DNA of 64,000 nt from a virus: the IMG/VR virus record IMGVR_UViG_3300025009_000051, positions 119,717-183,716 of that record. One strand, written 5' to 3'. Under the pieces are notes generated by a model that was given only the letters and a program-made list of their open reading frames with translations, searched no databases and was not told where the DNA came from. A program made the translations under genes and the position numbers. Positions 28,130 through 62,845 of this stretch are shown here, piece after piece (position 1 is the first letter of the stretch; every line of letters begins with the position of its first letter).

Positions 28130-31100
28130 TTATTTTAAATTTTTAAGAAGTTCATGTAGATCTTCAATATAAATATCGACTGGTTCTTTCTTATTTATTT
28201 CTTCATAATTATCTTCTAATTGTTTTTTCTTTTTCTTATACTCTTCAGTAGTTTCTTTTGATAATGTATGAACAGGTAAATTTAATAAATAATTGTATGA
28301 GTCATCTATCTTATCAAATTTAAACTTTTCTAATTGAGTTATGATTTCAGTTTTAGGTGTATCATTTATTTTAAGTTTGTTCTCGAAAATTTTTATAGAG
28401 AACAAGATCTTGTTAGATAATATTTTTATGTCCTTAGATATACTATCGAGTAAGAACGTCTTTCTTTTCGTTATATAAGGTAGTCTAAAATGTAAAAAAT
28501 GAGTGATGATATCATAAATATTTTCAAACTGTTTTAATTTTCCAAATTCATCTAATACATTCAAATTTTCAGATTCATATGAAGTCAATTTTAATAATTT
28601 CATAATATCCTCTTTGGTAAAATCGGCTAAATCAGATCTTGAAAATTTAATTATGTATTCAATATTTTCTTTACTGTTATTTTCATAATCTACAATTTTT
28701 CTTTTATCTATTAATTCATTCAAATATATTTCATAATCTTCAAACTCCCAATTTGGAGGAAGTTCTGTAATCTTAATTGTATTGGTATTTATCCTTTCAT
28801 ATGTTCCACTGAATATCCATCTTTTATTTGTTTCATCGAAAAAAGTATTTTCATTATTTGTAAAATCTGGATAATAGGGTTTAATTATTTTATTTTTTAT
28901 TTTCTTACCTTTTAAAATATCAATACAAATATTAATAATTTCTTGAGGATTTCTATTTAAAATATTTGTGGCAAATCCAACAGCAATACCAGAAGAACCA
29001 TTTATTAATACCATTGGAATAATAGGTAGAAAATATTTTGGTTCTATTTCTACTCCCTCATCGAATGTAGGAGTTAATAAATTATTATCTTTATAAAGAT
29101 ATTCGAAATTTGGTGAAATTTTTGTACTTACATATCTTGCAGCACCTGCTTCTCTATCTCTAAAAGAACCATATTGTCCAATATCCAATAATAAAGGTAA
29201 ATTATTTTTAAAGGTTTGTGCCATATTAATAATGGCTCCTTCTAAGCTTACATTTCCATGATGATAGTGTTGAGTGTCTGCAATTCTACCTGCACATTGA
29301 AATACTTTAGTTTCTTTGGTTATTTTTCTTGCTTCATTTATAATTTTCCTTTGTGTTGGTTTAAATCCATCTATTGCACTTGGTATTGCTCTTTGTTCAA
29401 TCACATGATAAGCATATGACAAATATTCTTCATTTAAATATTGTGAAATAGTTTTTACATCTTTTGTATATAATATCTCTTCAACTAAATTTTCTACAAT
29501 TATTTTCTTTCTTAAATCTGTTTCTCTACCAAACCATATTTCCAATAATTCTTTTGAATTTTCGTCTAATTTAAATTGAATTAATTTTGGAGATTGAATA
29601 ATCTTTTTATACTCTTCATTTTCTAAAGCAGCTAACCCCTTTTTATAACTTATGTCCCATTTCTTTAATTCTGTTTCTTTTAATTTATGTAACCAATGAT
29701 TATATTCTGTTTCTGAATAAAATTCTAAAACTTCTTTATTGTGCTTTGCTACAACAACCGGAGTTAATATTCTAAATACTTTTCCTTGCTCATATAATTC
29801 TGGCCAAAAAGTGTAAAAGAAATTAATTAATAAACCTGCAATTGCGTCTCCGTCAGTATCAGAGTCACTCATGATTCGAATTTCATTATATCTTAAATCT
29901 GTAGCTTTTTCTCCAATTTTTAATCCTACAGCCGCCATCAAATCTTTTAACTCTTTATTTTTATATACATCAAGAGATTCAATTTTCGAAACATTCTTAA
30001 CCTTGCCTCTCAATGGAAATAAACCATGAATTTTATTATCCATATATTTTCTGGCGCCGCTTTTGGCCGAATCCCCTTCAGTAATTAAAAGTATGCAACC
30101 AGATCTATCTGTATTTTTAGCATCTATTAATTTATCTACAATGACTTTATGAATTTTTCTATTTTCTATTCTTAAATCTCTTTCCTTTGCTTCTTCTTCT
30201 TTCTTTTTTGCCCAATCAATTATACTTGCACATATTTCACTATTAAATAATTTATTTAGAAATTTTTCACTTACAATATGTTCTGTTCCAAAATCAACTG
30301 GTTTAGTAGACAATTTTTGTTTTGTTTGACTTCCAAAAGCAGGATTGATAATTGTAGAATTAATAAATAAAAATAAATGTTGCTTAATACCATATGGAGT
30401 GATATTAACCTTATATTTCTTTTTTATTTTTTCTCTTAACCAATCTGTAATTTGATTTGCTATGTATTCTACATGCTCTCCGCCTTCTGGAACAGATAAA
30501 CTATTTACAAAACTAATATGATTAAATCCTTTTGTTGACAATTTAATTGCTATCGACCAATCTTTACTTTCTTCAAATATTATATCTTCGGCCGCACTTT
30601 CAAATAAATCACTAAATTCTTTAAATGATTTATATTGATATTTTTCTTTTACTCCGTCTACATCTAATACAATTTTTAATCCAGAATTACAGGCCGCGAC
30701 ATTAATAATTTTAAATCTTATCCAGTCAATTAAATCTTTATCTATAATTGTATAATCAAATCTTTTGTAATCGGGTGTGAACTTTATTTCTGTATAATGT
30801 TCTTTTGAATTTTCTATTTTAAAATCTTCAAATACAGATAAATTATCTCGATAGGTTCTTTGAAATTGTTTTTTTCCATCTGCACTTTTTATTGTGAATT
30901 TTTTGGAGAAAATATTAGTTATACTACTACCTACTCCATTTCTACCTGCCACAATTCTATTTTCTGTATCATCAAAATTGCTACCCGACCTTAATTTACT
31001 CACGATTAAATCTGGAATATATAGATTATATTCTGAGTGCATAATTATTGGAATTCCACCGTTGTCCCAAACTGATATTTCACCTGTCTTGGTGTTTAGC

Positions 31101-31351
31101 TTAACTTTAATAGCATCTATAACATTATTTCTTAAATGCTCGTCTACACTATTAGAAATAATTTCGTTGAATATTTGAAATAATCCGGGAGAAGCATTAA
31201 TTTGCGTTGAAACCAATTTATTATTTTTTAAGCTATAAATTTCAACTGCTTGCCTTGATGTAGATCCGATCATAATTTCGGGTCTTTTTAAAATATACTC
31301 TACTTCATCTTGAATCCATTGATATTTTTGTTCTAAAGTTTTTTGTTGCAT
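28130..31351 (-). CDS. Type IIA DNA topoisomerase, single polypeptide (GHKL + TOPRIM + breakage-reunion domains)
   Basis: FNEIISNSVDE, GRNGVG, ITEGDSA, PLRGK, SDSDTDG, IDGFKPTQRK, YHHGNVSL, GAARYV (catalytic Tyr). Confidence 0.93.
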   Translation of the reverse strand: MQQKTLEQKYQWIQDEVEYILKRPEIMIGSTSRQAVEIYSLKNNKLVSTQINASPGLFQIFNEIISNSVDEHLRNNVIDAIKVKLNTKTGEISVWDNGGIPIIMHSEYNLYIPDLIVSKLRSGSNFDDTENRIVAGRNGVGSSITNIFSKKFTIKSADGKKQFQRTYRDNLSVFEDFKIENSKEHYTEIKFTPDYKRFDYTIIDKDLIDWIRFKIINVAACNSGLKIVLDVDGVKEKYQYKSFKEFSDLFESAAEDIIFEESKDWSIAIKLSTKGFNHISFVNSLSVPEGGEHVEYIANQITDWLREKIKKKYKVNITPYGIKQHLFLFINSTIINPAFGSQTKQKLSTKPVDFGTEHIVSEKFLNKLFNSEICASIIDWAKKKEEEAKERDLRIENRKIHKVIVDKLIDAKNTDRSGCILLITEGDSAKSGARKYMDNKIHGLFPLRGKVKNVSKIESLDVYKNKELKDLMAAVGLKIGEKATDLRYNEIRIMSDSDTDGDAIAGLLINFFYTFWPELYEQGKVFRILTPVVVAKHNKEVLEFYSETEYNHWLHKLKETELKKWDISYKKGLAALENEEYKKIIQSPKLIQFKLDENSKELLEIWFGRETDLRKKIIVENLVEEILYTKDVKTISQYLNEEYLSYAYHVIEQRAIPSAIDGFKPTQRKIINEARKITKETKVFQCAGRIADTQHYHHGNVSLEGAIINMAQTFKNNLPLLLDIGQYGSFRDREAGAARYVSTKISPNFEYLYKDNNLLTPTFDEGVEIEPKYFLPIIPMVLINGSSGIAVGFATNILNRNPQEIINICIDILKGKKIKNKIIKPYYPDFTNNENTFFDETNKRWIFSGTYERINTNTIKITELPPNWEFEDYEIYLNELIDKRKIVDYENNSKENIEYIIKFSRSDLADFTKEDIMKLLKLTSYESENLNVLDEFGKLKQFENIYDIITHFLHFRLPYITKRKTFLLDSISKDIKILSNKILFSIKIFENKLKINDTPKTEIITQLEKFKFDKIDDSYNYLLNLPVHTLSKETTEEYKKKKKQLEDNYEEINKKEPVDIYIEDLHELLKNLK

Positions 31352-37218: not shown

Positions 37219-39240
37219 TTATTTGTAATTAATTAATTTTTTAAAATCATTTATTTCAATACAAATAATTCCCATTTTAGTAGCTTTAACTTCTTTTGAA
37301 CTTCCACTACCAATTTGTTTCATTATTAAATGTGTTACATTTTTATTTATTCCATCAGAAACAATTCCACCGTTTTCTACAATGAAATTTTCTAATCCTT
37401 TATCTCGAATTCCTGTAAAAACGGTATTATATGATTTTAATGAATCTGATAATATTTCTTGTTTCTTTTCTTCTTCTTTAAATTTTATATGTTTTAAAAT
37501 TGATTGTTCAAATTCGTCATATAATTTAATATTATCATAATAATCAAATGCTAATTCTGCACCTATTCCAGGAATTAATAAAAAATTATGATGAAATTGT
37601 GGATTATCTAAAATCAATTTTAATTGTTTACTTCCCAATTTTTTAAAACAAGAACTCGCGTGCATTAATTTAGCTTTATCACAATTTTGTAATTTAGAAT
37701 GAATGTTGGTATAAACAATTTCGGCTTTTCTTTCTCCAAATCTTTCTAACTTTAATAAATCCTCTTTAGTCAAATCTAATATTTTTTGAATTGAATTATA
37801 TCCATTTTCAATAAATAATTTTATTGTGGGTTCACCTAATTCATCTACAGATAAAATATTAAAGAATGCAAATATTTTTTGTATTACTTGTTCAAAACAA
37901 TTTGGATTTTTACAAACCAGATTTACATAATTATCATCCCAATCTAGATCTCCTCCACAAGCTGGACAATACATATTTAAAGATTTATCTTGACTCTCCA
38001 TTTCTCGAATTTCCATTAAATCTTCTTTGGCTTTTTGATACTCTTTTGAATTATTGAACATATACACAAATGGAATTGGATGATTATTAACTGCAATTAT
38101 TTTTGGAATAACTCCTCCACTTCTTATAATTGTGATTTTTTCTCCTTCGAATAATTTAAATTTATCAATATAACTTGCATTGTTTAATGTTACACTTGAA
38201 ATATTTACTCCTTCAATATTGACCGGTTTAATTTTTGCGACATAACTCATATCACCAAATTTACCTATTGATTCAAGTATTGATTTAATTTCTGTTTCTG
38301 CTCTTACTTCAAAATTACCTTTATATGCTCTTGCATAATTTGGATTCTGTGAGGATTTATTTCTTCCAATTTTAGCTCTTAATTCTTTATCATTTACTTC
38401 AATGACTAATCCATCAATTTCATAATCTGTCTTCCAATTATTATAAAGATTCAATAAAAATTCTTCATTAAGATCTTTAAAATAACTTAAACCATACGGT
38501 ACTTTATAAATATTAAGTGTATTACAATATTCAATTTGGACCGCTTTGTCTTCTTCTATTCCATTTATCACTGCTCCAAACATTATATAATCTGCATATT
38601 TTAATTCTTCTAGAATGTCATCTGCATTTATTAACCCAGAAACAGAATTTCGTGCATTTGAAGGTTCTTCTTTTCCTTTTTTGATTTGTTCTTGTTTAAA
38701 TATCTCAAAATTCTTTCTTGATATTATGCATTCTCCAATGAGATATACATCTTCTGTTTCTGATTTATTTAAGTTATGATTAATCAATTTAAAATGTTCC
38801 TTAGAATTTCTTCCATAATCTTTATCTCCTCTTGTCCATACATTCAGTATTTTCTTTTCGTTTAACAATGCAAGGCCATCTAATTTTGGAGAAATACAAA
38901 GTAAAGTATTTTCAGGAATGCCTTGAAGTCTCATCCAATTTTTTATTTCAATTAAAGATTTAACTTTAGTCATTGAAGCCATTACAATCGGAAGCTTTTC
39001 TTTTCTTGGATCATTATCATCCATTTCAAAACCAACTTTGTTTAATAAACTTGATTCAGGATAATTTTCTTCTAAATATTCCACGATTGTATCATAAACA
39101 AAATCAGAAACAATAGCGTTTGATAATCTATATTCCTGATTCATTTTTGATATTAACTCTTCCAATTCTTTTTGTGATAAAGAAGAAATAATATTTACTA
39201 TTTCGTCTTTTGTAGTGGTAATTTTTAATTTATTTATCAT
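37219..39240 (-). CDS. ligA: NAD-dependent DNA ligase
   Basis: [54 protein letters not shown] zinc finger, HhH, BRCT (VFTG..DK); start moved off the promoter to ATG 39240. Confidence 0.93.
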
Positions 39241-39261
39241 ATTCTTTTTATTTTCTATATA

Positions 39262-39293
39262 CAAATATACAGTTATTAAATGAAGTAAACAAA
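39262..39293 (-). promoter_or_regulatory. Bacteroidota sigma-type promoter TTTG-N20-TATATTTG
   Basis: Both boxes present, 20-nt spacer. Confidence 0.7.
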
Positions 39294-42190: not shown

Positions 42191-43375
42191 TTAATGAGAT
42201 TTAAAATTAAATACTGGTTTCAAAGTATCGATTATTTCTACCGTATCCACAATTGCATTTTTTATTTCTTCAATTGATTTATATGCTTGAGGAGCTTCAT
42301 CTAAGGTTGATCTGACTACTGAAGTAGAATACACATTTTTCATTAATTTTTTGAATTCATTCATATCAATTAATTCTTTAGCTTTACTTCTGCTCATCAA
42401 TCTACCGGCACCGTGAGGAGCAGAATAATTCCAATTTTCATTTCCTTTACCTTTACATATTAAAGATCCGTCACTCATATTAATTGGTATCAATAATTGT
42501 TCACCTAATTCAGCACTAACTGCTCCCTTTCTTAATATCATTCTGCTGAAATCAATATAATTGTGAATTGTTTCAAATTTATGCTTAAAATTAAAATTCA
42601 TTTCTCTTTCAATTATCTTGGCCATTGTTAATCTATTTAACATTGCATATTCTTGGACAATTTTCATATCATTTAAATAATCATTGAAATCTGTACCAAT
42701 TAAAAATGCTAATTCTTTATCTGCTGAAGGTTTTTGAATTTTCTTTAATTCTGAATCTATATCTTTTGATCTTCCTTCTGCTTTTAATTTTTTTATTAAA
42801 TTTTCTTTTATCTTTCCCATTTCATTTAAATTCTGAAATGCTTTATCTTGATAATATTTGCATACATCTTGACCTAACTTTCTACTTCCAGAATGGATAA
42901 TTAAATAATTATCTCCTGTTAATTCTGATCTACCTATCTCGATGAAATGATTGCCGCCCCCCAAGCTTCCAATGGATAACATTGCTCTTCCTATATCAAC
43001 ATGCTTAGCACATTTTAATTTAGAAAAATCAAATTTTACTTGAGAGTCATGATGAATGTTAAATCCATGTGGAACTTTTTCTTTAATTACTCTATCAAGA
43101 TTTTCAAAATTAATATCTTTATTTTTTAATTGAATTGTTAAAAGACCACACCCAATATCCACTCCAACTAAATTAGGAGTAATTTTATCTGCTACTGGCA
43201 TTGTAGTTCCAACAGTGCAACCTTTACCCGCATGCCCATCTGGCATTATTCTTATTTTAGAATTTTGATAAGGTGCATAATTGCATAACTTTTTTATTTG
43301 CTCGAAAGCTTCATTTTCAAAAGTTTCAGCAAAAATTATTGTTTCAACTCCAAGATTATTCTTAATTATTTTCAT
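42191..43375 (-). CDS. rtcB: RtcB-family RNA ligase
   Basis: MPDGHAG, GVDIGCG, GSLGGGNHFIE, IHSGSR, HNYID, RKGA, HGAGR, DEAPQAYK. Confidence 0.93.
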   Translation of the reverse strand: MKIIKNNLGVETIIFAETFENEAFEQIKKLCNYAPYQNSKIRIMPDGHAGKGCTVGTTMPVADKITPNLVGVDIGCGLLTIQLKNKDINFENLDRVIKEKVPHGFNIHHDSQVKFDFSKLKCAKHVDIGRAMLSIGSLGGGNHFIEIGRSELTGDNYLIIHSGSRKLGQDVCKYYQDKAFQNLNEMGKIKENLIKKLKAEGRSKDIDSELKKIQKPSADKELAFLIGTDFNDYLNDMKIVQEYAMLNRLTMAKIIEREMNFNFKHKFETIHNYIDFSRMILRKGAVSAELGEQLLIPINMSDGSLICKGKGNENWNYSAPHGAGRLMSRSKAKELIDMNEFKKLMKNVYSTSVVRSTLDEAPQAYKSIEEIKNAIVDTVEIIDTLKPVFNFKSH

Positions 43376-43505: not shown

Positions 43506-44000
43506 ATGGCAGAATTCATAGATCCTCAAGAATTAATGTACACCAGCTTCGAACCTATGTTGAAACATAGATTTAGAATGGAAATCGATGGGATACCAAC
43601 ATATATGATAAAAAAAGTAGATAAACCTCAAGCTACTTCTACTGAAGTTGAGATTCCTCATATAAATGTTTCAAGTTTTGTTAAAGGCAAGACTAAATGG
43701 TCAAGCGAAACAACTTTAGAGCTATACAATCCAATTTCACCCAGTGGAACTGCAATAGTAATGGAATGGTTTAGAATGCATCATGAATCTGTAACAGGTA
43801 GAGATGGTTACTTTGACATGTACGCTAAAGATGTGACAGTAGAAGTACTCGGACCAGTTGGAGATATTGTTGAAAGTTGGACATATAAAGGTGCTTGGAT
43901 AAAATCTATGGAATTTGGTGATTTAGATTGGGGCACAGAAGCAGACCAAACTATGATTACTTTAACCTTGCAATATAATTTCCCCGTGTTTAATTATTAA
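43506..44000 (+). CDS. Tail tube protein (T4 gp19-like)
   Basis: FEPMLKHRF...VEIPHIN...KGKTKW...LGPVGDIVESWTYKGAWI...ITLTLQYN. Confidence 0.85.
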   Translation: MAEFIDPQELMYTSFEPMLKHRFRMEIDGIPTYMIKKVDKPQATSTEVEIPHINVSSFVKGKTKWSSETTLELYNPISPSGTAIVMEWFRMHHESVTGRDGYFDMYAKDVTVEVLGPVGDIVESWTYKGAWIKSMEFGDLDWGTEADQTMITLTLQYNFPVFNY

Positions 44001-44026: not shown

Positions 44027-44052
44027 AACTCACAATAAAATGTGAGTTTTTT
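44027..44052 (+). terminator. Intrinsic terminator after the tail tube gene
   Basis: AACTCACA-ATAAAA-TGTGAGTT followed by a T run. Confidence 0.7.
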
Positions 44053-46130
44053 CATATCTTACAAATTACTTCATATTTTTGATTCGATTTTTTATTGAAG
44101 TGTGAAGTATTGTTTAAGATTTTAAATTCTTCTTTCAACTCTAATTTGTTCATTAAATCAGAACTCATATTTAGGTAGACATTATTGAAAGAATAAAACT
44201 TCTTAATAAATGTTTCTTGCCATTCTTCAAAAGATTCATATTTGATATTATCTGAATAAATTTCTGTTTCAAAGAATGGGATTGAAGTGAACACCAAATT
44301 ATACTCCTTTTCATATCGAAAATCTTCAAATTTACAATTATAAAGTTGAATTTGATTTTCATTTAATTTTAATTCTTCAATCAAATTTAATCTTAATTCT
44401 AATAATTCTTGAAAGGTGTCTTTATTGGGTTCAATTCCAATATATGTTCCTTCAGGATATTTTGACATAAAACCAAGCAATCTGCCACCAAATCCTGCAC
44501 ATGGATCAATAACAATTGGATTTATTTTATCTTTCAATAATTCTTGATAAATACTCGCTGCAAGCAAAGGTTTGAAGAATGAAATGGTAATTCTTCGAGC
44601 TGATAGGCCTCGAATTAATTGATGCAAGCTAAAATCAAATATCTCATTCGAATCATTGCAACCAATTCTATATTTTATCACATCTTGTAGAAGAGTATTT
44701 TCATACCAAGCTTGAACTGGAGTTAAATTTCCAGAATAAGAAGAATTCCAATAAGATTTAAAATTTGATTTTAGATAATTATTTCCAATTGGAGAGATAT
44801 TATTTCTAAAAATTTTATCTTTATAGATTCTGTTTAAGTCATAATTTTGAATTGTGGCAATAACTTCAGATAATTTTTCAGTCTGCTCAAGATAAGGAAA
44901 TTCTGGTTGAAAGGTTCTAATAAATTTGAATAGAAGAGGAATATATCTTATTAATTTATCTTTTCCTTTTTTATCAATATATCGTTTAAAGTATTCTTTA
45001 GAAATTATTTTCTGATAATAAGAAATTGAATAATCAGGCCGATAAGAATTTAATTGTAATGTTTCTTCATTTATTTCGGCTTTTAATTGTTCTGCTCTTA
45101 TTCTATATAAACTATAATTTGATTGTTCTATTATTTTAGTTTTTTCAAAATCATTTATAGCAGAATTAATTTGAATTATTGATAAATTTTCAAGTTTATT
45201 TGGATGATAAAATATGCCATCTATTTCATATATGTTGTCATTTATTTTTATATCAAATTCTTTATTTTCATATATAAAACTTCCAGTTGCATGCTCTAAA
45301 TTATTTAATATATTCATTTCATCTTTAGAAGGTATTATTCGAAAAGATTGTTTTTTCTTTTTTTGAGTAGTTTCTTTAATTTTTTTTACCAATAAAGATT
45401 TTCTTTTAAACCAATCATTTGAATGTAAATAATTTTCTGCATCATATCTTTCTAAACAAGTTTCTTTATATTTTAACCTATTGTTAAAATCTTTGTTACC
45501 GTATTTTTCTTTTTTTGTGTTTTTACTTTTTTCTTTAACATCTGTTCTTTGAAAACTATACTCTACATCATATAATTCTAAATTTTTTCTTTTTTGCTCT
45601 TCTTTAAATAGTTTTGTTTTAAATATATTATCTTCTCCATATTTTTCTTCAATTGTTTCTTTCATTTTATTCCACATATTCACATCTAATCTAGAACATT
45701 CCTTAGAACAATATTTCTTTGGACTATTTATTTTAACTTTAAATTCTGACTTACAATTTGGACAAATTCTAATTTCTGTTTTTATTTCTTTTGTTCTATA
45801 TTCATATTGGCATTTAGGAGAACAAAATTTAATTTTAGAATTTATTTTAACTTCTAATTCTTTATTGCAATTTTTGCAATTGATTGTTTTTCTTGGTATT
45901 TTTGTTTGTAATTTATTTGAATGAAATTGAACATATTCAGAAAATCCTTTATTTAAATTTATCCAAGAAGTTTGTTGACCACATCCACATTTACATAAAG
46001 GAATGATTCCGTTATAATCATATTTTAGGCTATAATCATAAGAAGGCATTTTATGAATAAATCTTATATGAGAAGACAATTTTCCAGAAGTGGAAAAAGA
46101 TTCATTACATATTTTACAAGTATGATTCAT
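44052..46130 (-). CDS. Multi-zinc-finger / KYG-repeat / PD-(D/E)XK-like nuclease fused to a C-terminal SAM-dependent DNA methyltransferase-like domain
   Basis: C2H2 (CKIC..HIRFIH), CKCGCG, two CxxC..FCSxxC units, EKYG repeats, FDIKI..IYEIDGIFYH, then IDPCAGFGGRLLG, YIGIEPN, FTSIPFF; ATG at 46130. Confidence 0.75.
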   Translation of the reverse strand: MNHTCKICNESFSTSGKLSSHIRFIHKMPSYDYSLKYDYNGIIPLCKCGCGQQTSWINLNKGFSEYVQFHSNKLQTKIPRKTINCKNCNKELEVKINSKIKFCSPKCQYEYRTKEIKTEIRICPNCKSEFKVKINSPKKYCSKECSRLDVNMWNKMKETIEEKYGEDNIFKTKLFKEEQKRKNLELYDVEYSFQRTDVKEKSKNTKKEKYGNKDFNNRLKYKETCLERYDAENYLHSNDWFKRKSLLVKKIKETTQKKKKQSFRIIPSKDEMNILNNLEHATGSFIYENKEFDIKINDNIYEIDGIFYHPNKLENLSIIQINSAINDFEKTKIIEQSNYSLYRIRAEQLKAEINEETLQLNSYRPDYSISYYQKIISKEYFKRYIDKKGKDKLIRYIPLLFKFIRTFQPEFPYLEQTEKLSEVIATIQNYDLNRIYKDKIFRNNISPIGNNYLKSNFKSYWNSSYSGNLTPVQAWYENTLLQDVIKYRIGCNDSNEIFDFSLHQLIRGLSARRITISFFKPLLAASIYQELLKDKINPIVIDPCAGFGGRLLGFMSKYPEGTYIGIEPNKDTFQELLELRLNLIEELKLNENQIQLYNCKFEDFRYEKEYNLVFTSIPFFETEIYSDNIKYESFEEWQETFIKKFYSFNNVYLNMSSDLMNKLELKEEFKILNNTSHFNKKSNQKYEVICKI

Positions 46131-46315
46131 ATAGAAAATATACAAAAATTAATTTCTAAAAACAAAAATCATTTTATATCTTCGTATTCAATTATTATTT
46201 TTGGAATATAATCTTTTGGTAATTTATTAATTATTCCTCTGATAAGAAAAAGATTTAGTTCTCATCATAGATAAAATAATATCATCTGATTTTATTTGTT
46301 CTAAAAATAAAAAAA

Positions 46316-47650
46316 TCATATAAAAGAGTATAAATCTATATAACTCTTTCTGCTATGATTTAATCTGAAAACACTCGCTTCATGCATTTTAATTGCATCT
46401 TCGAGTGAAACTCGATATTTAAATTTCAAGTTTTTTACAAACAAAAATAATTTTTTCCAATCTTCAATCCATTTAATCCCCATTTCCTTCCATTGGTGTT
46501 GAATTGAACTTTTTAGATTAAAGACTGGATAGAAACCATTTTTGTTTTTCTTTACCTTCCATTCATAGCCCCTTCGGGCTATCTCTATGCTTGCATTTAC
46601 TGAATCTGTGAAATCATGTTGAAGATTTCCAATGAAAGATGAATATGCAGGATTGACTGAATGAAGGTTGATTTGATATATATTTAATCTCTTTTTAAGA
46701 TTTCGAGTGAATAATTCTCTCTTCCACAAATTTCTATTCTTCCTATTTCCAAGATGATTATATTTTTGATCTGAACTTAATTTCATCTTGAATTTCAGGT
46801 CTTCTATAAAGACATTCTTGCATTGAAAATGCTTCGCAAGAATTGAAATTGATTTTGAGATTTGAATTGTTTCGAATTTTAATTTATTTTGGAAATATTT
46901 CATCTTTGATGAATTTGAACTCGAGGCTGAATCTAAAATTTTATTAAAGATAGGTCGAAGAGAATATTCTTGAGTATGAATAACTCTTCCATCTTCAAGG
47001 ATTGAAATTCCGATGTTATCGGGATTCAGATCGATTCCAATATATCTTTCATTCTTCAAATCTAAATTCTCTTCATCTTTAAATTCTTCGAAGGAAATAT
47101 AAATTTCTTTCTCTGTCAATCTGACAGAATAAGTATAACCTTCATTTTCATTTAACATTTCTAATCTTTCCAACACCTTCTTATAATTATTTCTTAGATT
47201 TGGAAGATTCAGTTCAAATCTATATTTTAGATTTAATTTGAAAATTATTTGATTATTTTCAATAATATCTAAAATGAATTGGCGGTTCCCGCCTTTTAAT
47301 TTTTCACCTTGAATATTCAAAGGAAGCAATCTCTTTTCTTTCAATTCTTCTTTTGTCATCTTTCCTTTCATTCTTTCAATAAAATTCTTCTTACCACCAA
47401 AAACAATTTTCTTCTCTTTAAATCTTAAATGAAGCTGATTAGCTTCCATAATTGCACATTGTTGCAACCAACTATTTGAATTTTCAATTCCTTTCAATTC
47501 TTTCAGACTATGCCTGATATTTGTCTGCTTCATCTTCTCTTGATATCTATTAAAAGCATATCTTACAATCAATGAATATTCACGACGAAGCTCTTTCAGC
47601 TTCTCATAAAATCTTTCATTTGCTGTGTATGGAATTTTAATAGTTATCAT
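46316..47650 (-). mobile_element. tnpB: Solo TnpB-like RuvC nuclease (IS200/IS605/IS607 accessory protein), no tnpA nearby
   Basis: IGIDLNP (RuvC-I), VFIEDL (RuvC-II), VNPAYSSFIG...TDSVNASIEIARRG (RuvC-III). Confidence 0.8.
46323..46415 (-). ncRNA. Candidate omega-RNA scaffold / right-end hairpins overlapping the tnpB 3' end
   Basis: Three hairpins: 46401-46415 (TCGAGT/ACTCGA), 46382-46398 (ATGCA/TGCAT), 46323-46349 (about 10 bp with one bulge). Confidence 0.4.
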
Positions 47651-47730
47651 TCTTTTTAATATTCTTTATTAATAAGTATAAAAAATAAAAAAAGAACCTA
47701 ATTTTTTCAAAATCCCAAATTGGTATAAAT

Positions 47731-48117
47731 TTATATCTTTTTATATTTTTTGTAAGAACATATAATATTAAAAGATGTAGAATTTAAAATTTCTTTAAAA
47801 TCTTCTCCCATTTCTTTTATTTCTTCATCGTCTTCGTCATACTTCCAATTAATAGTTATATTTGTATAATCTTGAAGAATCAATAAAATTTGAAATATAT
47901 ATTTGTGTGATGTACTATTAATCAAATTAAAATGAAAATTTACATTTATATCCGTCTTTATTTCAGATAAATTTTCCTCTAACCAAAGTATGCAATTCTC
48001 ATACATATTATCCGGAACTTGTTTAACTGAGTTTCCTGTGAAGCTATATTCTCCTGTTTCATTATTTAAAATGATTAAAGGAGTTTCTTTAGTTTTTTTT
48101 ATATATAAGTCTTCCAT
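47731..48117 (-). CDS. SiaC/DUF1987-family protein
   Basis: LYIKKTKETP...SFTGNS...WLE...INSTSHKYIFQIL...INWKYDEDDEEIKEMGEDF. Confidence 0.75.
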   Translation of the reverse strand: MEDLYIKKTKETPLIILNNETGEYSFTGNSVKQVPDNMYENCILWLEENLSEIKTDINVNFHFNLINSTSHKYIFQILLILQDYTNITINWKYDEDDEEIKEMGEDFKEILNSTSFNIICSYKKYKKI

Positions 48118-48122
48118 ATTGA

Positions 48123-48605
48123 TTATAAATTAAATTTCTTGATAAATGTTTCAGAAATAGATTGATATTTTTTTATTAAATTCACATCTACTAAATCTAA
48201 ATGTTCTTCTATAAATTTTTCAGATAATACTTGATATATAGAAATAAATTCCCAATTTAAATGAAATTTATATTTATCAATAAATGCTTCTGATAATGGT
48301 TGCCATCTAGAAACTAAAAACCAATAAATGTGATCTTTATATTTTTCTATAAATTCTTCAGATAATATTTGATGTTTTGATATACAATACCAAGAAACTA
48401 AATTAAAATTTTTTTCTATAAATTCTTCAGATAATATTTGATGTTTTGATAATAAATACCAATTTAATTTGTTACTATATTTTTCTATAAATTCTTCAGA
48501 TAAGAATAAATATTTTGATATCCAATCCCAATCAATTTTAGATTCGTCTAACACATCTAAAACTCTGGTTTCCTTATCATATGTTAAATAATCTAATTTT
48601 TTCAT
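48123..48605 (-). CDS. Tryptophan-repeat protein (22-aa WxxISxxQxLSEEFIEKY units)
   Basis: About six tandem 22-aa repeats, also visible as 66-bp DNA repeats. Confidence 0.8.
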   Translation of the reverse strand: MKKLDYLTYDKETRVLDVLDESKIDWDWISKYLFLSEEFIEKYSNKLNWYLLSKHQILSEEFIEKNFNLVSWYCISKHQILSEEFIEKYKDHIYWFLVSRWQPLSEAFIDKYKFHLNWEFISIYQVLSEKFIEEHLDLVDVNLIKKYQSISETFIKKFNL

Positions 48606-48634
48606 TGGATTTGTTTTTAAATAAGTATATTAAA

Positions 48635-48901
48635 TCAAATTAAAAATAAAATTCTTTTTTTATCAATATATTCAAGTAATTGTACAATCTGTTCAAATTG
48701 TAGATATGTCGTTACTTCATCACTTCTTAAAAAATTAAATACTTTTTTTCTTTCTATTGTTTTTTCTTTAAATTTGTCTGTGATCAAATCAATGTAATAT
48801 TCATAATCTAATTTTGTTTCAAATGATTCTTTTCCATATTTCACTTGCAAATCTTTTTCTATTTCTGTTTGATAGGTTTTTTTGATATTGTGTTGTTGCA
48901 T
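48635..48901 (-). CDS. Hypothetical protein
   Basis: ORF track. Confidence 0.55.
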   Translation of the reverse strand: MQQHNIKKTYQTEIEKDLQVKYGKESFETKLDYEYYIDLITDKFKEKTIERKKVFNFLRSDEVTTYLQFEQIVQLLEYIDKKRILFLI

Positions 48902-48991: not shown

Positions 48992-49834
48992 ATGGAAAAA
49001 GAAGAAAACAAAACTATCGTTCAAACCAAAACCAAAGAAGCTCCTAAATTTCTATTTCAAACTCAAGTAGAAACAGTATTATTGCCAAGTAAAGGATTAA
49101 CATATCCAGAAGATAACCAATTAAGTTCTGGAGAAGTGGATTTATATTATCCTGATACAAGTCATGAAGAAATTTTAATGAGTCAAAAATTAATTAAAAA
49201 TAATACGGTCGTAGATAAATTTTTAAAATCTGTAATAGCTTCAGATATCAATTACAATGATTTAATACCTGGAGATAAATCGGCTTTAATGATTGCTGCA
49301 AGAATTTTATTGTATGGAAAAAATTATGAAACAGAAGTTAAATGTAGGCATTGTGGTGAAACTCAACCGGCTATAATTGATTTAACTACATTTAAAGATG
49401 CAGAAATAGATTATAATTTATTGAATAGAGAGAACAGATATACGTTTGAATGTCCAAATAGAAAAGAAGTTATTACATTCAAATTATTAACTACTCTGGA
49501 TGAAGCAGAAGTAGAAAAAGAAATAAAATTTAGAAAAGATTTTGATAAAAAAAGTAATAGAGAAGCAGATACAGACTATGAATATTCTACAAGATTAAAA
49601 CATATGATTGTTTCAGTAGAATATAATCATAATGGTAACAAAGGTGTAATATCAGATCCTAAAGAATTAAATGCTTATAAAATGTTAAGCTTGGATTCAA
49701 AAGAATTTAAAAAATATTTAAAATTGGTTAATCCCACTATTGACACTTCAACATCATTCGTTTGTAAAGAATGTGGAGAGACAAACGAGATTAAGATGCC
49801 AATGCAAGCAAGCTTTTTTTGGCCTACCACCTGA
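48992..49834 (+). CDS. Tail/baseplate hub assembly chaperone (T4 gp26-like)
   Basis: VLLPSKG..YP...EEILMS..LI...DL..GDK..LMIAARILLYG...CRHC...CKEC...FFWP. Confidence 0.7.
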   Translation: MEKEENKTIVQTKTKEAPKFLFQTQVETVLLPSKGLTYPEDNQLSSGEVDLYYPDTSHEEILMSQKLIKNNTVVDKFLKSVIASDINYNDLIPGDKSALMIAARILLYGKNYETEVKCRHCGETQPAIIDLTTFKDAEIDYNLLNRENRYTFECPNRKEVITFKLLTTLDEAEVEKEIKFRKDFDKKSNREADTDYEYSTRLKHMIVSVEYNHNGNKGVISDPKELNAYKMLSLDSKEFKKYLKLVNPTIDTSTSFVCKECGETNEIKMPMQASFFWPTT

Positions 49835-49850
49835 TTATAGGAAGCAGGTG
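49814..49850 (+). other. Putative programmed ribosomal frameshift signal (U7 run + hairpin/pseudoknot)
   Basis: AGC TTT TTT TGG; CACCTG/CAGGTG stem 7 nt downstream of the run. Confidence 0.6.
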
Positions 49851-50120
49851 TTCCGTCGTATTTTTGAAATTACATATTACAGCGAAGGAGGAATTAATTA
49901 TGCGGAAGCATATGCATTTCCGGTGTGGCAGCGCAATTTCGTATATCAACAATTGAAAGAAACTAAAGAAAAAGAAAAAGCAGAAACAGATAAAATTACG
50001 AACAATCCTAAATCAGTTGCACCGACAAAACCACAAATTCCAAGTTTTGCTATGTCTAAAAATAAATCAAGTAATTTGTCTAAATATAAAGATGCGGTAA
50101 AAAATCCAAGAACTAAATAA
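49821..50120 (+). CDS. C-terminal extension of the chaperone in the +1/-2 frame (gp51/GT-like)
   Basis: GLPPDYRKQVFRRIFEITYYSEGGINYAEAYAFPVWQRNFVYQQL; no in-frame ATG upstream of this segment (the track start is a TTG inside the upstream gene). Confidence 0.65.
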   Translation, partial: GLPPDYRKQVFRRIFEITYYSEGGINYAEAYAFPVWQRNFVYQQLKETKEKEKAETDKITNNPKSVAPTKPQIPSFAMSKNKSSNLSKYKDAVKNPRTK

Positions 50121-57322: not shown

Positions 57323-58363
57323 ATGGTAGTTTCAATCAATCCAATAAAGGACGCAACAATTTATGAATATTATCCAACCAAAAATACTGGTACAGATCAA
57401 ATCATAGAATTATTATATGATGTAGATTATACGTCTGCAAGTAGAATATTAATGAAGTTTAATACTGCTGATATTAGTACCATAGTTTCGGGAGTAAGTA
57501 ATCCTCAATATATTTTAAGATTATATGCCTCTGAACAATATGAAATACCTGAAGATTATACAATAAAAGCTTTTCCATTATCGCAAGACTGGTCTATGGG
57601 AATAGGAAAATTTTATAATAATCCAGAAACTGAAGACGGAGTAATTTGGAATTCAACAGGAACGGTAGATTGGATAGATTCTGGATCTGCTTATACAATG
57701 GTTTATAATTATGAAACAGGCGGGGGAAGTTGGAATTCAAATTATTCTGCAAGTCTAGATTTAAATTATGAAACAAGAGATTTAGATATTGATATATCTA
57801 CAATAGTAACTGCTTGGTTATCTGGGTCAATATCAAATTATGGATTAATTGTAAAAGTAGACGATGAATATAATTTAAATCAAGATTTAGAATTAAAATA
57901 TTTTAGTAAAGATACTCATACAGTATATGAACCAAAATTATTTATAAATTATGATACTTCACAATTTACAACTGGTTCATTAGAAGCATTAGAAGATGGA
58001 GATATTTCAATAAGTATAAAGAATTTAAGGAGTTCATATTACACTGCAGACACTGTCAGATTATATGTTCATGCAAGAGAAAAATATATTCAAAGAACAT
58101 ACAGTTTAACAAATCCATATTTGACATCTAAATATTTACCAGAAACAACTTATTATTCTATAATAGATGGAAGTTCTAAAACAACAATAATTCCATTTAG
58201 TGATTATACGAAAGTAAATTTAAATGCAGACGACGCAAATTATTTTGATTTGTATATGAATAATTTTTATCCTGAAAGACATTATAAAATAATTTTTAAA
58301 GTGGTATGGAGCGATAGACAACAAATATATGATAATAATTTATATTTCAAAGTTATAGAATAA
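57323..58363 (+). CDS. Virion structural protein with a DNRLRE-like domain
   Basis: PIKDATIYE...SRILMKF...LRLYA...W..G.G...DIDISTIVTAW...NYGLIVK...YFSKDT..YEPKL. Confidence 0.7.
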   Translation: MVVSINPIKDATIYEYYPTKNTGTDQIIELLYDVDYTSASRILMKFNTADISTIVSGVSNPQYILRLYASEQYEIPEDYTIKAFPLSQDWSMGIGKFYNNPETEDGVIWNSTGTVDWIDSGSAYTMVYNYETGGGSWNSNYSASLDLNYETRDLDIDISTIVTAWLSGSISNYGLIVKVDDEYNLNQDLELKYFSKDTHTVYEPKLFINYDTSQFTTGSLEALEDGDISISIKNLRSSYYTADTVRLYVHAREKYIQRTYSLTNPYLTSKYLPETTYYSIIDGSSKTTIIPFSDYTKVNLNADDANYFDLYMNNFYPERHYKIIFKVVWSDRQQIYDNNLYFKVIE

Positions 58364-59466
58364 TGAAAAAACAAATTATAAGAAAAAATGCAATATCAAA
58401 TGAGTGGGAGCATTATGTAGAAAAAACAAATCTAAATGAAGGATATTGGTCGCCCGGTTTATCTGGAGGAGATAATCAAGAGAATTTATATAATGCATCT
58501 CAACTTCCGAGAGTAAATAAGAATGGAATGTTAATGAGTTATAATTTTTTTAATTATCATACTGAATATTTTGATATAATTAATATAGAAAAAGAAGACG
58601 AAACAGAATTTGAAGAATTAGAAGTGATATCTATGGAAAGTATGTATGGAACTCCAATTGCAAATATAAATGGACCATATGGTTCAATTATAAATATACC
58701 AATATTATTTTCAAGTGAAGGGTCCACAGGGGGCGCAACAAGCATTGCAGAATATATTTGGGATTTCGGAGACGGTGATAAAAGCAATGAAGCAAATCCA
58801 ACTCATACATATACAAAGGAAGGAATATATACTATATCGTTGCAAGTTTCAAATGAATTCGGACAATCGGATATAAATGTAACCCTCGCAGAAATATTGA
58901 TAGAAGCACCAGAAAATTATTATCCGATTGTAAATATAAATGGACCATATACAGGTAAGCACGGAGAAGTATTGTCATTTAGCAGCGAAGATTCAGAAGC
59001 AGGAACAGGATTAATTGTCAAATATAATTGGAATTTTGGTGACGGCAATACAAGTAATTTAGCAAATCCCACTCATGAATATTTATTAGATGCTTATGAG
59101 CAACAAAGAATATTTAATGTATCATTAACAATTGAAAATAATCTTGGATATTCATCTACAGAAACGACAACCACAACTATAAAATCAACTGAACTTATTC
59201 CTGTAATTACTGTCAGTACTACCGGGCCATATTCCGGTATTGTGGGCCAATCAATTAGATTTGTTGCATCTGCAGTTTCCACAGACGGAAAAATTGTGAA
59301 TACCAAATGGGAATTTGGTGACGGCAATATTGAAACAAGATATTTAATTACAAATCATGCATATACTGAACCGGGGATTTATTTGGTAAAACTCACGGTA
59401 GAAGATATTTTAGGAAATAGCGATTCTGCAAATACAACTGCAATGATAACTATTAAGAACATTTAA
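58363..59466 (+). CDS. Virion protein with three PKD (Ig-like) domains
   Basis: Three WDFGDG/WNFGDG/WEFGDG...H.Y..G.Y.V.L.V units. Confidence 0.85.
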   Translation: MKKQIIRKNAISNEWEHYVEKTNLNEGYWSPGLSGGDNQENLYNASQLPRVNKNGMLMSYNFFNYHTEYFDIINIEKEDETEFEELEVISMESMYGTPIANINGPYGSIINIPILFSSEGSTGGATSIAEYIWDFGDGDKSNEANPTHTYTKEGIYTISLQVSNEFGQSDINVTLAEILIEAPENYYPIVNINGPYTGKHGEVLSFSSEDSEAGTGLIVKYNWNFGDGNTSNLANPTHEYLLDAYEQQRIFNVSLTIENNLGYSSTETTTTTIKSTELIPVITVSTTGPYSGIVGQSIRFVASAVSTDGKIVNTKWEFGDGNIETRYLITNHAYTEPGIYLVKLTVEDILGNSDSANTTAMITIKNI

Positions 59467-59476
59467 AAAAACATAG

Positions 59477-62400
59477 ATGCAATATTTAGAATTACACATA
59501 TATGACAAAAAAGATACTTTAATATTAAGTAATCAGAATCTATCAAATTGGTATCTTAAAGATAATATAGATGAGATTACTGGAGCTGCATCTAAAAGAA
59601 TAATTTTTAATATTCATAATTATCTAAGAAATCAAAAAATAAATTCTGGTCAATATAATTTATGCTTATTTGTTAAAGAGTCTTTGTATGAAGATACATT
59701 GAATGACACTTTTAAAATTTCTTCAATAGCAAATAATAGAAATGAGTTGATTATAGAAACAAAAAACTATGATATATTTCTTTCTATATTAAATTTGCTT
59801 CAAGCTAATACAGATCAATTAATTCTGAATTTTAATAATAATGATACATTTGAAATCAATAATTGGAGCTTAACATCCGATTCAAATTTAAAAAGAATTT
59901 CAATTTCTTCAAAGGGAACAAAATATAAAATTGCAATAAAATTAAATGAAGAATTGCCGGCAAAAATATCTTTAAATTCTTTAGTTTCTATTGAAAAAAT
60001 AATATATGATAAAGTATGGCAAGATATTGGGTTTGTTCAAAAAAATAAGGAGTATGATGTAAATGTTTTAACTCGACCAAATTTTGACATTAAAATTAAT
60101 AAAAATTCTAAAGAAGAAACAACATATTTGAGTTGGGAGGATTTGGTGTCAACAAATACCGAAATTAAAAATTTATTAGAAAATAATTATTTTAGTTTTT
60201 ATGAGCAAACTGCTACATTAAATGTAGATTTTGAAGATTTTTCTAATTTTGTTTTTTATTCGAGTGCAGAACATAGATTAATTAACTTTAAATATAAAGT
60301 ACAACAAATCGAAGATTTAAATGAAAACATTTCAAATGTTTCAATATCTTCTTATCAAGAAACATATCAAAATGATATACAAGAACTATTATTAAGTTTA
60401 GATGCTTATGAAAAATTCTTATATTATGATAGTAGCAGTTTATATTCTTGGCCCAAAGACTCGAGCGGATCATTAGAACCAATAGAAGATGTAACAACCT
60501 GGTATGAAGGCATGATAGATTCAGCTATTACTTATGACGACGATAACATAGCTGCATTAAGAAAAAATATACCTGAATTCATAATGAATGATGAATATAG
60601 CAGTCAATTTTTTATTTTTATAGATTTAATTGCTCAACATTTTGATGTATTATGGTTATACATAAAACACATTGGATATTTACACAATAAGAGTGAAGGA
60701 ATAACTTCTGGATTGAGTAAAGATTTAATTTATCATATGTTAATATCTTATGGTTGGGAACCATCTCAGAACAATCAATTTGAAGATTTGTGGAAATATA
60801 TTCTTGGAACTCAAGATGAAACAGAATTAGAATTAATAGATGAAACTGATCAAGTGTTTACTGCCGAAATGTTAGATAAAGAAATTTGGAAAAGAATATT
60901 AAATAATTTGCCTTATTTATTAAAAACTAAAGGAACTAAAGAAGGAATAAGAGCTTTAATCAATTGTTACGGAATTCCAAAAACTGAGTTAGCAATTCGA
61001 GAATATGGCGGGCCAAATAAAATTAATGTTAAATCATTAAACATAATTGATAAATTTGCTTATGCAATCAAATTAACTTCAGATTCTAATATTATTGTTC
61101 CTTATTATGCTCCCGGTTCAATTGAATTTAGATTTAAATTAACAGATAAAGAAGACCAAACTTTGTTTATTCGTGAAGACGGTGGAATTGCATTGAATAC
61201 AATTAATGTAGATGATATGTATGGATATATTGAATTTGAAATTGATGCATATACTTTTACATCAGATCAAATTCCAATATATGATGAAAATTGGTGGTCG
61301 TTTTTATTGCGTTCTACCACAAATGTAGGTGAATATGAAATATTTCTTAAGAGTGCTAAATACAATAAAATAAATTATGAATATAGTGGTTCATTTGATA
61401 TTAGTGGTTCATTAGCATATTCAGAATTTATTGATACCACTCAAGATTATTATATTGGATTTGAAGGTAGAATGCAAGAATTTAGATATTGGAACACTTC
61501 GTTAAATGAAGAAGCATTTGATAACCATGTTTTATCTCCGACTTCATATAATGGAAATGCTTCAATTGCTCCTTGGGAAGAATTAATATATAGATTAACA
61601 TTAGGAACAGATACAATAAAATATAATCATTTTGAAACTACCTATATCACTTCTCAACACCCACAAGCAGGAATGACATTTGCAGATTGTATTATAGATG
61701 GAGGAGAATCTACATCTGGAAGTTATGATATTGTCGACGGTGGAGATGCAACTTCTGGAAGTTATGATGAAATAGATGGCGGAGATTCAGACGATATAAC
61801 TTGTGGAGATATAGCTAATGCATATTTTGAAAATTTTCCAAATGAATATAATTATGAAATTGTTGTTGAACAGTATGCGCATGAATGGCCAGATACCGGC
61901 GGCAATAGAAACATATCAAATAAAATAAGAATTGAAGATAATGAATTAATTACTAATTTAGATTTAAATCTTTCTGCAGAACAATCGAGTTATGATTTAG
62001 CACCAATTGACAATGCTAAAATTGGAGTATATTTTGGTCCAAATTTAGAGGTGACGCAAGATATTGCTGAATATATGGCCGGGATTAATATTGATAATTA
62101 TATTGGTACTTCCGATAATGAATATGCAACATATTATAATAGCTTAAGATTATTGAAAGAATATTATTTGCAACAATATTTTGCAAAATACAATGTGGTA
62201 GATTATTTTAGATTGATGCCATATTTTAATAATAGTTTATTTCATCATTTAGATGATATTACTCCTGCAAGATCTGTTGTATTAAGTGGATTGGTTATTG
62301 AGCCGCATATTTTAAATAGAAGTAAAATAAGACTTTTGCGTTCAAAACCTTCGGCGGACAGTTTGACATATGATATAGAATATGATTTAAAACCTACTTC

Positions 62401-62845
62401 TACTTTTGCTGGAAATGAATATTTATATAATGAAGGAACTCTTACGGCAGATGTAAATTCAAAATTATCTGGAGAGTCAATAGGGTACGATGCAGAAATA
62501 ATTTATAATCATTATTTACCATCACAATATATTAGATATAACACATATTTTGATACTTCTGGAAATCAGCAATTAATTCAAAATCCTTATTGGTATTCTG
62601 AAGGAGTTATAACAATAATTGAAAATGCAGTAGAAAGCATACATACAAAAATAGAAAATCCTTTATATGGATATATTTCTGGATCGTTAGAATTTTTGAA
62701 TGCCAGAGTACAAGATTATAAAGGAATTGGCTTCGAAAGATTGTATTATAAAGGATGCAAAATGGTAAGTTCTAATTGGAATGAGCCTTCCGATGATATG
62801 TTTGATAAATCACCAATTGTAGAATATTGGGAAAGCCAAACATAA
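59477..62845 (+). CDS. Large virion/baseplate structural protein with a LamG-like central region
   Basis: 1122 aa; LLKTKGTKEGIRALINCYG (baseplate-type motif), SIEFRF...EFRYWN, Ser/Gly-rich. Confidence 0.65.
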   Translation: MQYLELHIYDKKDTLILSNQNLSNWYLKDNIDEITGAASKRIIFNIHNYLRNQKINSGQYNLCLFVKESLYEDTLNDTFKISSIANNRNELIIETKNYDIFLSILNLLQANTDQLILNFNNNDTFEINNWSLTSDSNLKRISISSKGTKYKIAIKLNEELPAKISLNSLVSIEKIIYDKVWQDIGFVQKNKEYDVNVLTRPNFDIKINKNSKEETTYLSWEDLVSTNTEIKNLLENNYFSFYEQTATLNVDFEDFSNFVFYSSAEHRLINFKYKVQQIEDLNENISNVSISSYQETYQNDIQELLLSLDAYEKFLYYDSSSLYSWPKDSSGSLEPIEDVTTWYEGMIDSAITYDDDNIAALRKNIPEFIMNDEYSSQFFIFIDLIAQHFDVLWLYIKHIGYLHNKSEGITSGLSKDLIYHMLISYGWEPSQNNQFEDLWKYILGTQDETELELIDETDQVFTAEMLDKEIWKRILNNLPYLLKTKGTKEGIRALINCYGIPKTELAIREYGGPNKINVKSLNIIDKFAYAIKLTSDSNIIVPYYAPGSIEFRFKLTDKEDQTLFIREDGGIALNTINVDDMYGYIEFEIDAYTFTSDQIPIYDENWWSFLLRSTTNVGEYEIFLKSAKYNKINYEYSGSFDISGSLAYSEFIDTTQDYYIGFEGRMQEFRYWNTSLNEEAFDNHVLSPTSYNGNASIAPWEELIYRLTLGTDTIKYNHFETTYITSQHPQAGMTFADCIIDGGESTSGSYDIVDGGDATSGSYDEIDGGDSDDITCGDIANAYFENFPNEYNYEIVVEQYAHEWPDTGGNRNISNKIRIEDNELITNLDLNLSAEQSSYDLAPIDNAKIGVYFGPNLEVTQDIAEYMAGINIDNYIGTSDNEYATYYNSLRLLKEYYLQQYFAKYNVVDYFRLMPYFNNSLFHHLDDITPARSVVLSGLVIEPHILNRSKIRLLRSKPSADSLTYDIEYDLKPTSTFAGNEYLYNEGTLTADVNSKLSGESIGYDAEIIYNHYLPSQYIRYNTYFDTSGNQQLIQNPYWYSEGVITIIENAVESIHTKIENPLYGYISGSLEFLNARVQDYKGIGFERLYYKGCKMVSSNWNEPSDDMFDKSPIVEYWESQT
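61697..61795 (+). repeat. In-frame 39-bp tandem repeat (DGG..TSGSYD units)
   Basis: GAT/GAC starts at 61697, 61736 and 61775. Confidence 0.8.

Follow-up and report, generated by a model that had tools for sequence, protein, structure and literature searches.

Can a single gene of a large, uncultured T4-related virus provide both the short and the long form of a tail assembly chaperone through a change of reading frame near its end? The question is raised by a locus in the IMG/VR virus record IMGVR_UViG_3300025009_000051, of which the final 64 kilobases (kb; positions 119,717 to 183,716 of the 183,716-base record, whose completeness is estimated at 79%) constitute the stretch of DNA analysed here, hereafter referred to as the window. 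The plus-strand open reading frame (ORF) at window positions 48992..49834 (ORF1, labelled TAC-N) encodes a 280-residue protein of the gp26/gp51 family with two CxxC pairs. It ends with AGC UUU UUU UGG CCU ACC ACC UGA, in which a run of seven U (U7; 49814..49820, plus strand, 0 frame UUU UUU U) stands just before the stop codon. The overlapping +1 frame is open from 49740 to 50120, with its stop codon at 50118-50120, and from the run onward translates as FFGLPPDYRKQ...; counted from GGC at 49821, it comprises 99 codons plus the stop (49821..50120, plus strand). Upstream of the run this frame contains no ATG in the window, the sole candidate starts being TTG at 49740 and GTG at 49773. An earlier reading of this DNA made without database searches, hereafter the sequence-only reading, had described this arrangement, with all coordinates and sequences correct, and had proposed a programmed +1 or -2 shift, through which a short and a long chaperone would be made. 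The comparative analysis presented here indicates that two proteins, of 280 and 375 residues, are very probably made from the one gene via a frame change at the seven U.

Taken by itself, the run is uninformative because the window is AT-rich (guanine-plus-cytosine content 25.6%) and runs of seven or more T are common in it (66 on the plus strand). An alternative frame that stays open for 99 codons is improbable, at about 3e-4 in a model based on base composition. Since the window alone is insufficient, the case beyond chance rests on conservation in the relatives.

Conservation of the slip site among relatives

Related loci were fetched from IMG/VR and metagenomes (160 loci), together with four GenBank phages, and the 134 distinct loci with sufficient downstream sequence were classified by their site. 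A metagenome scan with an alignment returned 80 loci, the best with 45% identity; a metagenome scan with the single protein gave no match, as did a blastn search of the locus against GenBank phages, and tblastn found only 11-14 phage records, with neither T4 nor cyanophages among them.

The run is kept in 122 of the 134 loci, where TTTTTTT is followed by GG CCT or AC CCT and the downstream domain lies in the +1 frame; 106 of these were assigned to that frame by an automatic motif test, and among the 16 that failed its pattern the translated members show the +1 frame. Interrupted runs are likewise accompanied by a domain in the +1 frame, TTT CTT T in five loci, TTC TTT T in one and TTT CTA T in one (assigned by translation). 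The site is TTC TTC T in four loci, whose domain is in the -1 frame, and the remaining locus (L088, a mis-picked ORF) has neither a site nor the domain. Conservation of U7 in homologues had been put forward by the sequence-only reading as a check on its proposal, and the proposal is borne out: about 130 independent relatives share the run, the frame and the downstream domain.

The domain encoded in the +1 frame of the run-bearing loci, called here the C-terminal 'T' domain, has some 50 conserved residues as its core and, behind them, a Lys-rich tail, and in the relatives with T7 the frame that carries it reaches 60-110 codons beyond the short-form stop. An alignment of 30 relatives identified F1, L4, Y33, P36 and R40 as its invariant residues. 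The nucleotides of the site are conserved as well: its Phe codons are UUU in 251 of 258 cases, compared with 76% elsewhere in the same genes, and the next Pro codon is CCU in 122 of 129, compared with 36% elsewhere. By these codon counts, synonymous sites are constrained at the run.

The four loci without the run (L010, L012, L089 and L096) constitute the strongest single argument for recoding. In them the U run is replaced by TTC TTC TGG, and an in-frame A_AAU_UUC, a canonical -1 heptamer, occupies the same place; in these four, and only in these, the +1 frame is not open, and it is the -1 frame that encodes the conserved domain. The type of signal and the target frame change together, which is what a joining of both parts by recoding would predict. 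On the evidence of this comparison across the relatives, the recoding is considered to be real and family-wide.

The same four loci also represent a switch of shift type inside one protein family. Another pattern was observed at the base preceding the run (window position 49813), which is C or G in 87% of the 122 loci, compared with 21% at other third codon positions; the codon before the run in relatives is AAC in 48 cases and AAT in 4, and GAG in 10 and GAA in none. T precedes the run in only 3% of the loci, against 37% at other third codon positions, a rarity that fits avoidance of the -1 heptamer U_UUU_UUU.

A few in-frame fusions of both parts, which may be true fusions or six-T assemblies, were also found in the protein database, and their junction, xFFGL, contains two Phe like the product of a +1 shift. 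A profile search for longer fused forms identified 11, and a single-sequence search found none. Two proteins of 308 residues (P0127 and P0128) belong to a divergent, T4 gp51-like subfamily in which the N- and C-terminal parts are fused in frame without a Phe-Phe site.

RNA structures flanking the run

The sequence-only reading had further suggested that the shift may be stimulated by a hairpin 3' of the run, possibly as part of an H-type pseudoknot. The stem CACCUG (49828-33)/CAGGUG (49845-50) begins 7 nucleotides (nt) after the run on the plus strand (49828..49850) and has six base pairs and a loop of 11 nt. The hairpin is well placed. The foot of its stem, at 49828, is at a distance of 11 nt from where the second UUU begins, which puts it at the mRNA entrance of the ribosome when the second UUU occupies the P site. 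The hairpin has a predicted stability of -7.5 kcal/mol, which 4 of 200 shuffles reached in a 27-nt context (z -2.45), and it is unremarkable in contexts of 36-141 nt. The stem is thus real and at the right distance but weak and not family-wide, and may be a modest, lineage-specific candidate stimulator.

Among the relatives, structures of -9 kcal/mol or below in the 40 nt after the run are present in 15 of 76 (about 20%), mostly in one clade, as compared with about 2% of control windows. The 3' stem of this clade covaries, with 75% of cells paired, 17 cells changed on both sides and 0 of 500 shuffles equal, a figure that is optimistic as the clade was picked after the stems had been seen. Stem covariation in homologues, a check named by the sequence-only reading, is thus seen in this clade; the stem of the window is in a different register.

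The pseudoknot found no support. Its proposed arms, CCUA (49823-26) and UAGG (49838-41), are complementary (49823..49841, plus strand), but stem 1 would start 3 nt past the run instead of 5-9 nt, and the CCUA arm, 3-6 nt past the run, would be held within the mRNA channel while the slip takes place. The two arms arise from codons that are conserved for the protein (GGC CUA for Gly-Leu and UAU AGG for Tyr-Arg). Although a helix of at least 4 base pairs occurred in only 3.5% of shuffles, pairing of this type was found in none of 17 relatives with 3' hairpins. An Rfam search of the region gave no match at E <= 1.

Structure was also found on the other side of the run. In the 30 nt before the run, examined in relatives L005-L165, a hairpin that ends 2-5 nt before U7 is present in about one-third of the relatives. 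The mean stability of the 5' hairpin is -4.7 kcal/mol compared with -1.7 kcal/mol in control windows (p 9e-28), and -4.5 compared with -2.95 kcal/mol for synonymous recodings of the same peptide (p 3e-10). In the window such a hairpin is absent: the corresponding 30 nt reach -1.3 kcal/mol (z 0.18) and fold no more stably than synonymous recodings do. The strengths of the 5' and the 3' hairpins are anti-correlated (Spearman -0.36, p 6e-5, 117 loci, uncorrected for relatedness).

Mechanism of the frame change and alternative explanations

A +1 ribosomal slip of tRNA-Phe on U7 that yields the long chaperone is the best explanation of the whole, and is preferred here with a confidence slightly better than even. 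Standard decoding would give the 280-residue short form. A minority of ribosomes would advance by one base on U7, with tRNA-Phe leaving one UUU to re-pair with the UUU that overlaps it; a run of seven U would be exactly long enough for the P-site and the A-site tRNA-Phe both to re-pair. The shifted ribosomes would then read GGC CUA..., adding the 99-residue C-terminal domain to give the 375-residue form with the junction ...ASFFGLPPDYR, and a gain in efficiency may come from the 3' hairpin, which has its base 11 nt away from the P-site codon. If the roles are divided as in lambda G/GT, coating of the tape-measure protein would fall to the N-terminal part that both forms share, and recruitment of tube subunits to the extra domain. 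To judge from the record, no phage tRNA is involved, since a search of the window and of all 183.7 kb brought up no tRNA gene.

The direction of the slip is suggested by the variant sites. Each of them (UUU CUU UGG, UUC UUU UGG, UUU CUA UUC and the UUC UUU CGG type) retains an in-frame UUU followed by U or C, and +1 re-pairing is therefore possible at all of them; several would leave the tRNA unpaired at -2, and homopolymer slippage is excluded at all of them. As far as can be judged from these site sequences, a +1 slip is the only mechanism compatible with every variant. The features of a prfB-type +1 shift are absent, the A-site codon being UGG and the window having no Shine-Dalgarno-like element 3-10 nt upstream; the G-rich stretches of the relatives lie more than 20 nt upstream of the run and code for conserved Glu.

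Several observations weigh against a +1 ribosomal slip. The U7 run exceeds the need of a simple P-site +1 slip, although it may be longer than a single-tRNA slip requires because both tRNA-Phe re-pair after the forward move. A 3' hairpin is the classic stimulator of backward, not forward, slips, and the terminator-like hairpin just 5' of the run in about one-third of the relatives also fits transcriptional slippage. Since Shine-Dalgarno sequences are not in use in this genome, even in front of clear genes, the lack of a ribosome-binding site for the second ORF is uninformative. Finally, TTG 49740 and GTG 49773 are both present and could in principle start the second ORF, which would then be a separate small gene of 126 or 115 residues expressed without any recoding; separate small downstream genes are so annotated in the GenBank phages immuto, Mel-JY01 and HSE3. 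Such an independent start is highly improbable. The annotated small genes truncate conserved residues. In the +1 frame, from the upstream stop to eight codons past the run, 55 of 129 loci lack any ATG, GTG or TTG, and in 45 of 129 this frame is open for at most three codons ahead of the run. The length of that open stretch ranges from 1 to 41 codons, yet protein conservation begins exactly at the run. These counts argue that independent initiation is ruled out for much of the family. The sequence-only reading had itself named an independent start, or homologues without the U run, as findings that would speak against its proposal; the run proved to be kept, and a possible start is missing from many of the loci.

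A backward shift would reach the same frame. In a ribosomal -2 shift, the A-site tRNA-Phe would slide from the second UUU two bases back while the 3' hairpin resists translocation, giving a product of 376 residues with the junction ASFFFGLPP. It is permitted by U7, a -2 shift has been proposed for the chaperone of phage Mu and shown for arteriviruses, and hairpins of the usual stimulator type for backward slips are found 7 nt past the run in the window and, with covariation, 6 nt past it in one clade of relatives. It is nevertheless considered unlikely, as it would put the P-site tRNA on GCU without pairing, the sites of L157 (UUC UUU UGG), L003 (UUU CUA UUC) and L004 (UUC UUU CGU) allow re-pairing at +1 and none at -2, the 3' hairpin is missing in most relatives, and the database fusions show two Phe, not three. 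RNA polymerase slippage, in which some transcripts lose one U on the T7 tract and standard translation gives the same 375-residue protein, is assigned a comparably low probability. A few percent of slipped mRNA would suffice, the homopolymer is conserved beyond the need of a single-tRNA +1 slip, and the 5' hairpins in about one-third of the relatives, stronger than synonymous recodings, have the layout that Penno and co-workers reportedly described in 2015 for stem-loop-driven transcriptional slippage; a hairpin followed by U7 also resembles an intrinsic terminator. Against it, the window is without the 5' hairpin, runs known for efficient unaided slippage are longer than seven, the relatives with interrupted runs retain the +1 arrangement, and the relatives of the -1 class have a canonical ribosomal heptamer and not a homopolymer. 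Moreover, two separate genes are given as the other mechanism of Vladimirov et al. 2022 in the paraphrase of that work in PMC10885494. The tryptic junction peptide expected from a +1 slip or from a six-U mRNA is MPMQASFFGLPPDYR, while three Phe are expected for the -2 shift.

A more elaborate scheme, which is regarded as rather doubtful, takes U7 for a mirror-image heptamer, read in the 0 frame as XXX_YYY_Z and passing to X_XXY_YYZ by a tandem +1 slip of both tRNA-Phe, with the lineages employing interchangeable stimulators, either a 5' refolding terminator-like hairpin or a 3' hairpin at 6-7 nt. Alternatively, the lineages with the 5' hairpin would use polymerase slippage and those with the 3' hairpin, the window included, ribosomal slippage. 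To our knowledge, a tandem +1 slip of two tRNAs has not been described.

Family and fold of the short protein

The 280-residue protein matches Pfam PF12322 (T4_baseplate) over residues 56-277 with 49.7 bits against a cutoff of 24.5 (E 5e-13), as well as phrog_150 ('baseplate hub'), and its BLASTP alignment with T4 gp26 (E 1e-5) takes in the second CxxC and the terminal Phe-Phe. Homologues at E <= 1e-5 number 2562 and mostly bear PF12322; the closest relatives (P0002-P0004) are 50-57% identical to the window protein. The CxxC pairs, C118/C121 and C258/C261, are invariant in the six closest sequences and align with the cysteines of T4 gp26, and the cysteines are missing from some distant family members. 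In an alignment of 29 homologues the last four conserved residues, F-F-W-P, are invariant. The gp26-like identity proposed by the sequence-only reading is supported by these matches and by the four conserved cysteines, which may form a putative zinc ribbon.

An AF2 model of the short form was obtained with a predicted local distance difference test (pLDDT) score of 90 and a predicted template modelling (pTM) score of 0.83. Structural alignment of residues ~16-118 against 48,161 chains gave as its top three matches 3fgx (Z 6.5), YqbN 3klu (Z 5.4) and the HK97 chaperone 2ob9 (Z 5.0, with a root-mean-square deviation of 8.3 over 81 residues), all below the advised Z of 8; the three are tail assembly chaperones or prophage homologues. 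Small zinc-ribbon proteins matched residues 113-277 of the model at Z ~3, and a Foldseek search of the PDB with the short-form model returned no match. Because the Z-scores are modest, the chaperone-type fold of the N-terminal domain is counted as suggestive. As part of the explanation preferred above, the gene, a homologue of T4 genes 26 and 51 by its family matches, would encode a putative tail assembly chaperone of a large T4-related myovirus.

Comparison with known chaperone genes

T4 gp26 (208 residues) and gp51 (249 residues), which are baseplate hub assembly proteins, carry PF12322 like the window protein (E 9e-64 and 4e-52, respectively, against 5e-13). In gp51 about 48 residues are added as a tail to the family domain, so that T4 possesses a shorter and a longer form comparable to the two proposed products. 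These are encoded in T4 by two genes (26 and 51) on opposite strands without a shift, whereas the window phage would use one gene for both forms. The homology of the extra domain of the window to the gp51 tail is not significant, hhalign giving the expected register at E 0.15. According to PMC10885494 and PMC12846349, gp26 and gp51 were identified as T4-like tail assembly chaperones by Vladimirov, Gautam and Davidson in 2022. As paraphrased in PMC10885494, that study found a short gene and a fused long gene, instead of a frameshift, in some T4-like phages, and the presence of PF12322 in both T4 proteins with an extra tail in gp51 agrees with this paraphrase. Poly-T slippery sequences in T4-like chaperone genes are attributed to the same study by the citing paper PMC12846349, which differs from the paraphrase in PMC10885494. 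The high novelty claimed by the sequence-only reading was thus overstated, since frameshifting in tail chaperones is textbook knowledge and the T4-like chaperone genes were, as these citing papers relate, identified in 2022.

The -1 frameshift of tail chaperone genes, as in lambda gpG/gpGT, is conserved (Levin 1993; Xu, Hendrix and Duda 2004; reviewed in PMC5009743). The locus resembles lambda G/GT in having a short and a C-terminally extended product from overlapping frames, a slip site a few codons before the stop, and a second ORF that overlaps the end of the first and is conserved as a protein, with starts absent in many relatives. The position of the gene between the tube and the tape-measure genes is shared by the relatives but not by the window phage. 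The locus differs from lambda G/GT in its +1/-2 frame, in its site UUU UUU U without an in-frame X_XXY_YYZ heptamer, and in the much larger size of the protein, with its putative zinc ribbon. The HK97 chaperone shows a weak resemblance to the modelled N-terminal domain (Z 5.0).

The +1 slip of Listeria phage PSA, which is said to have been described by Zimmer and co-workers in 2003, reportedly occurs in the P site on a Pro codon beside the stop, with a 3' RNA structure. The proposed slip in the window would likewise be a +1 slip in the P site, in a structural gene and with RNA structure on the 3' side, and would differ in taking place on Phe codons with the sense codon UGG in the A site. In PSA, genes for the capsid and for the tail are subject to +1 frameshifting (Zimmer et al. 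2003, cited in PMC9024508). Tail chaperone shifts other than -1 comprise a predicted -2 shift in phage Mu and a 'very likely' +1 shift in the halovirus HSTV-2 (PMC5009743); these concern the same kind of gene and a shift into the +1/-2 frame, in protein families unrelated to that of the window. In a 2016 review of recoding, T4 is named as the exception and a halovirus is given as a likely +1 case.

Genomic context

In the phages immuto, Mel-JY01 and HSE3 the sheath and tube genes are followed by the chaperone gene, a small ORF and the tape-measure gene, in that order, and an ORF of at least 500 residues starts 100-900 nt past the short-form stop in 74 of 75 metagenomic relatives; in these relatives the gene occupies the classical place of a tail assembly chaperone. 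The arrangement in the window is different. As the sequence-only reading had remarked, no tape-measure gene is adjacent, and the sole homologue of the tape-measure protein of the relatives is a 795-residue ORF at ~35.6-36.2 kb of the record, outside the window and 133 kb from the chaperone gene. By this homology search, the chaperone gene is unlinked from the tape-measure gene and is an exception within the family. The tail tube gene (43506..44000, plus strand; phrog_4542 tail tube, E 7e-25) lies about 5 kb from the chaperone gene with minus-strand genes in between, and small minus-strand ORFs followed by a gp6-like baseplate wedge gene lie downstream of the chaperone gene. The minus-strand block that splits tube from chaperone gene (44052-48901) includes a 697-residue ORF (44052..46145, minus strand) with weak HNH/homing-endonuclease matches (phrog_1271, E 2e-7; phrog_3339, E 1e-4), and may be a mobile insertion that split the tail module. 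A late-promoter-like motif, TATAAATA, is located 24 nt upstream of the ATG, but without enrichment in the window (24 occurrences against 29 expected).

Other genes observed in the window include, on the minus strand, those for an RtcB-type RNA ligase (42191-43375; E 1e-131), a nicotinamide adenine dinucleotide (NAD)-dependent DNA ligase (37219-39264), a topoisomerase II of 1073 residues in which the large and second subunits are fused (28130-31351) and a nicotinamide phosphoribosyltransferase (13905-15398; E 8e-201). A protein with three PKD domains (58363-59466, plus strand) is followed by a 1122-residue ORF without a Pfam or PHROG match (region 58363-62845).

Conclusion

The GenBank relatives immuto, Mel-JY01 and HSE3 carry no frameshift annotation, and the databases label the two parts as 'baseplate hub subunit' and a small 'hypothetical protein', an annotation which the present analysis would correct. 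The value of the finding lies mostly in the family-wide pattern and not in the window itself. The pattern speaks for T4 being an exception to tail-chaperone frameshifting in appearance only, with the work of the single gene of its relatives divided between two. If polymerase slippage should operate in the 5'-hairpin lineages and ribosomal slippage in the 3'-hairpin lineages, one gene family would obtain the same product at two distinct levels of gene expression. With U7 and a +1 domain, interrupted runs that fit only +1, a -1 heptamer paired with a -1 domain and lineage-specific 5' or 3' hairpins, the family constitutes a natural test bed for recoding.

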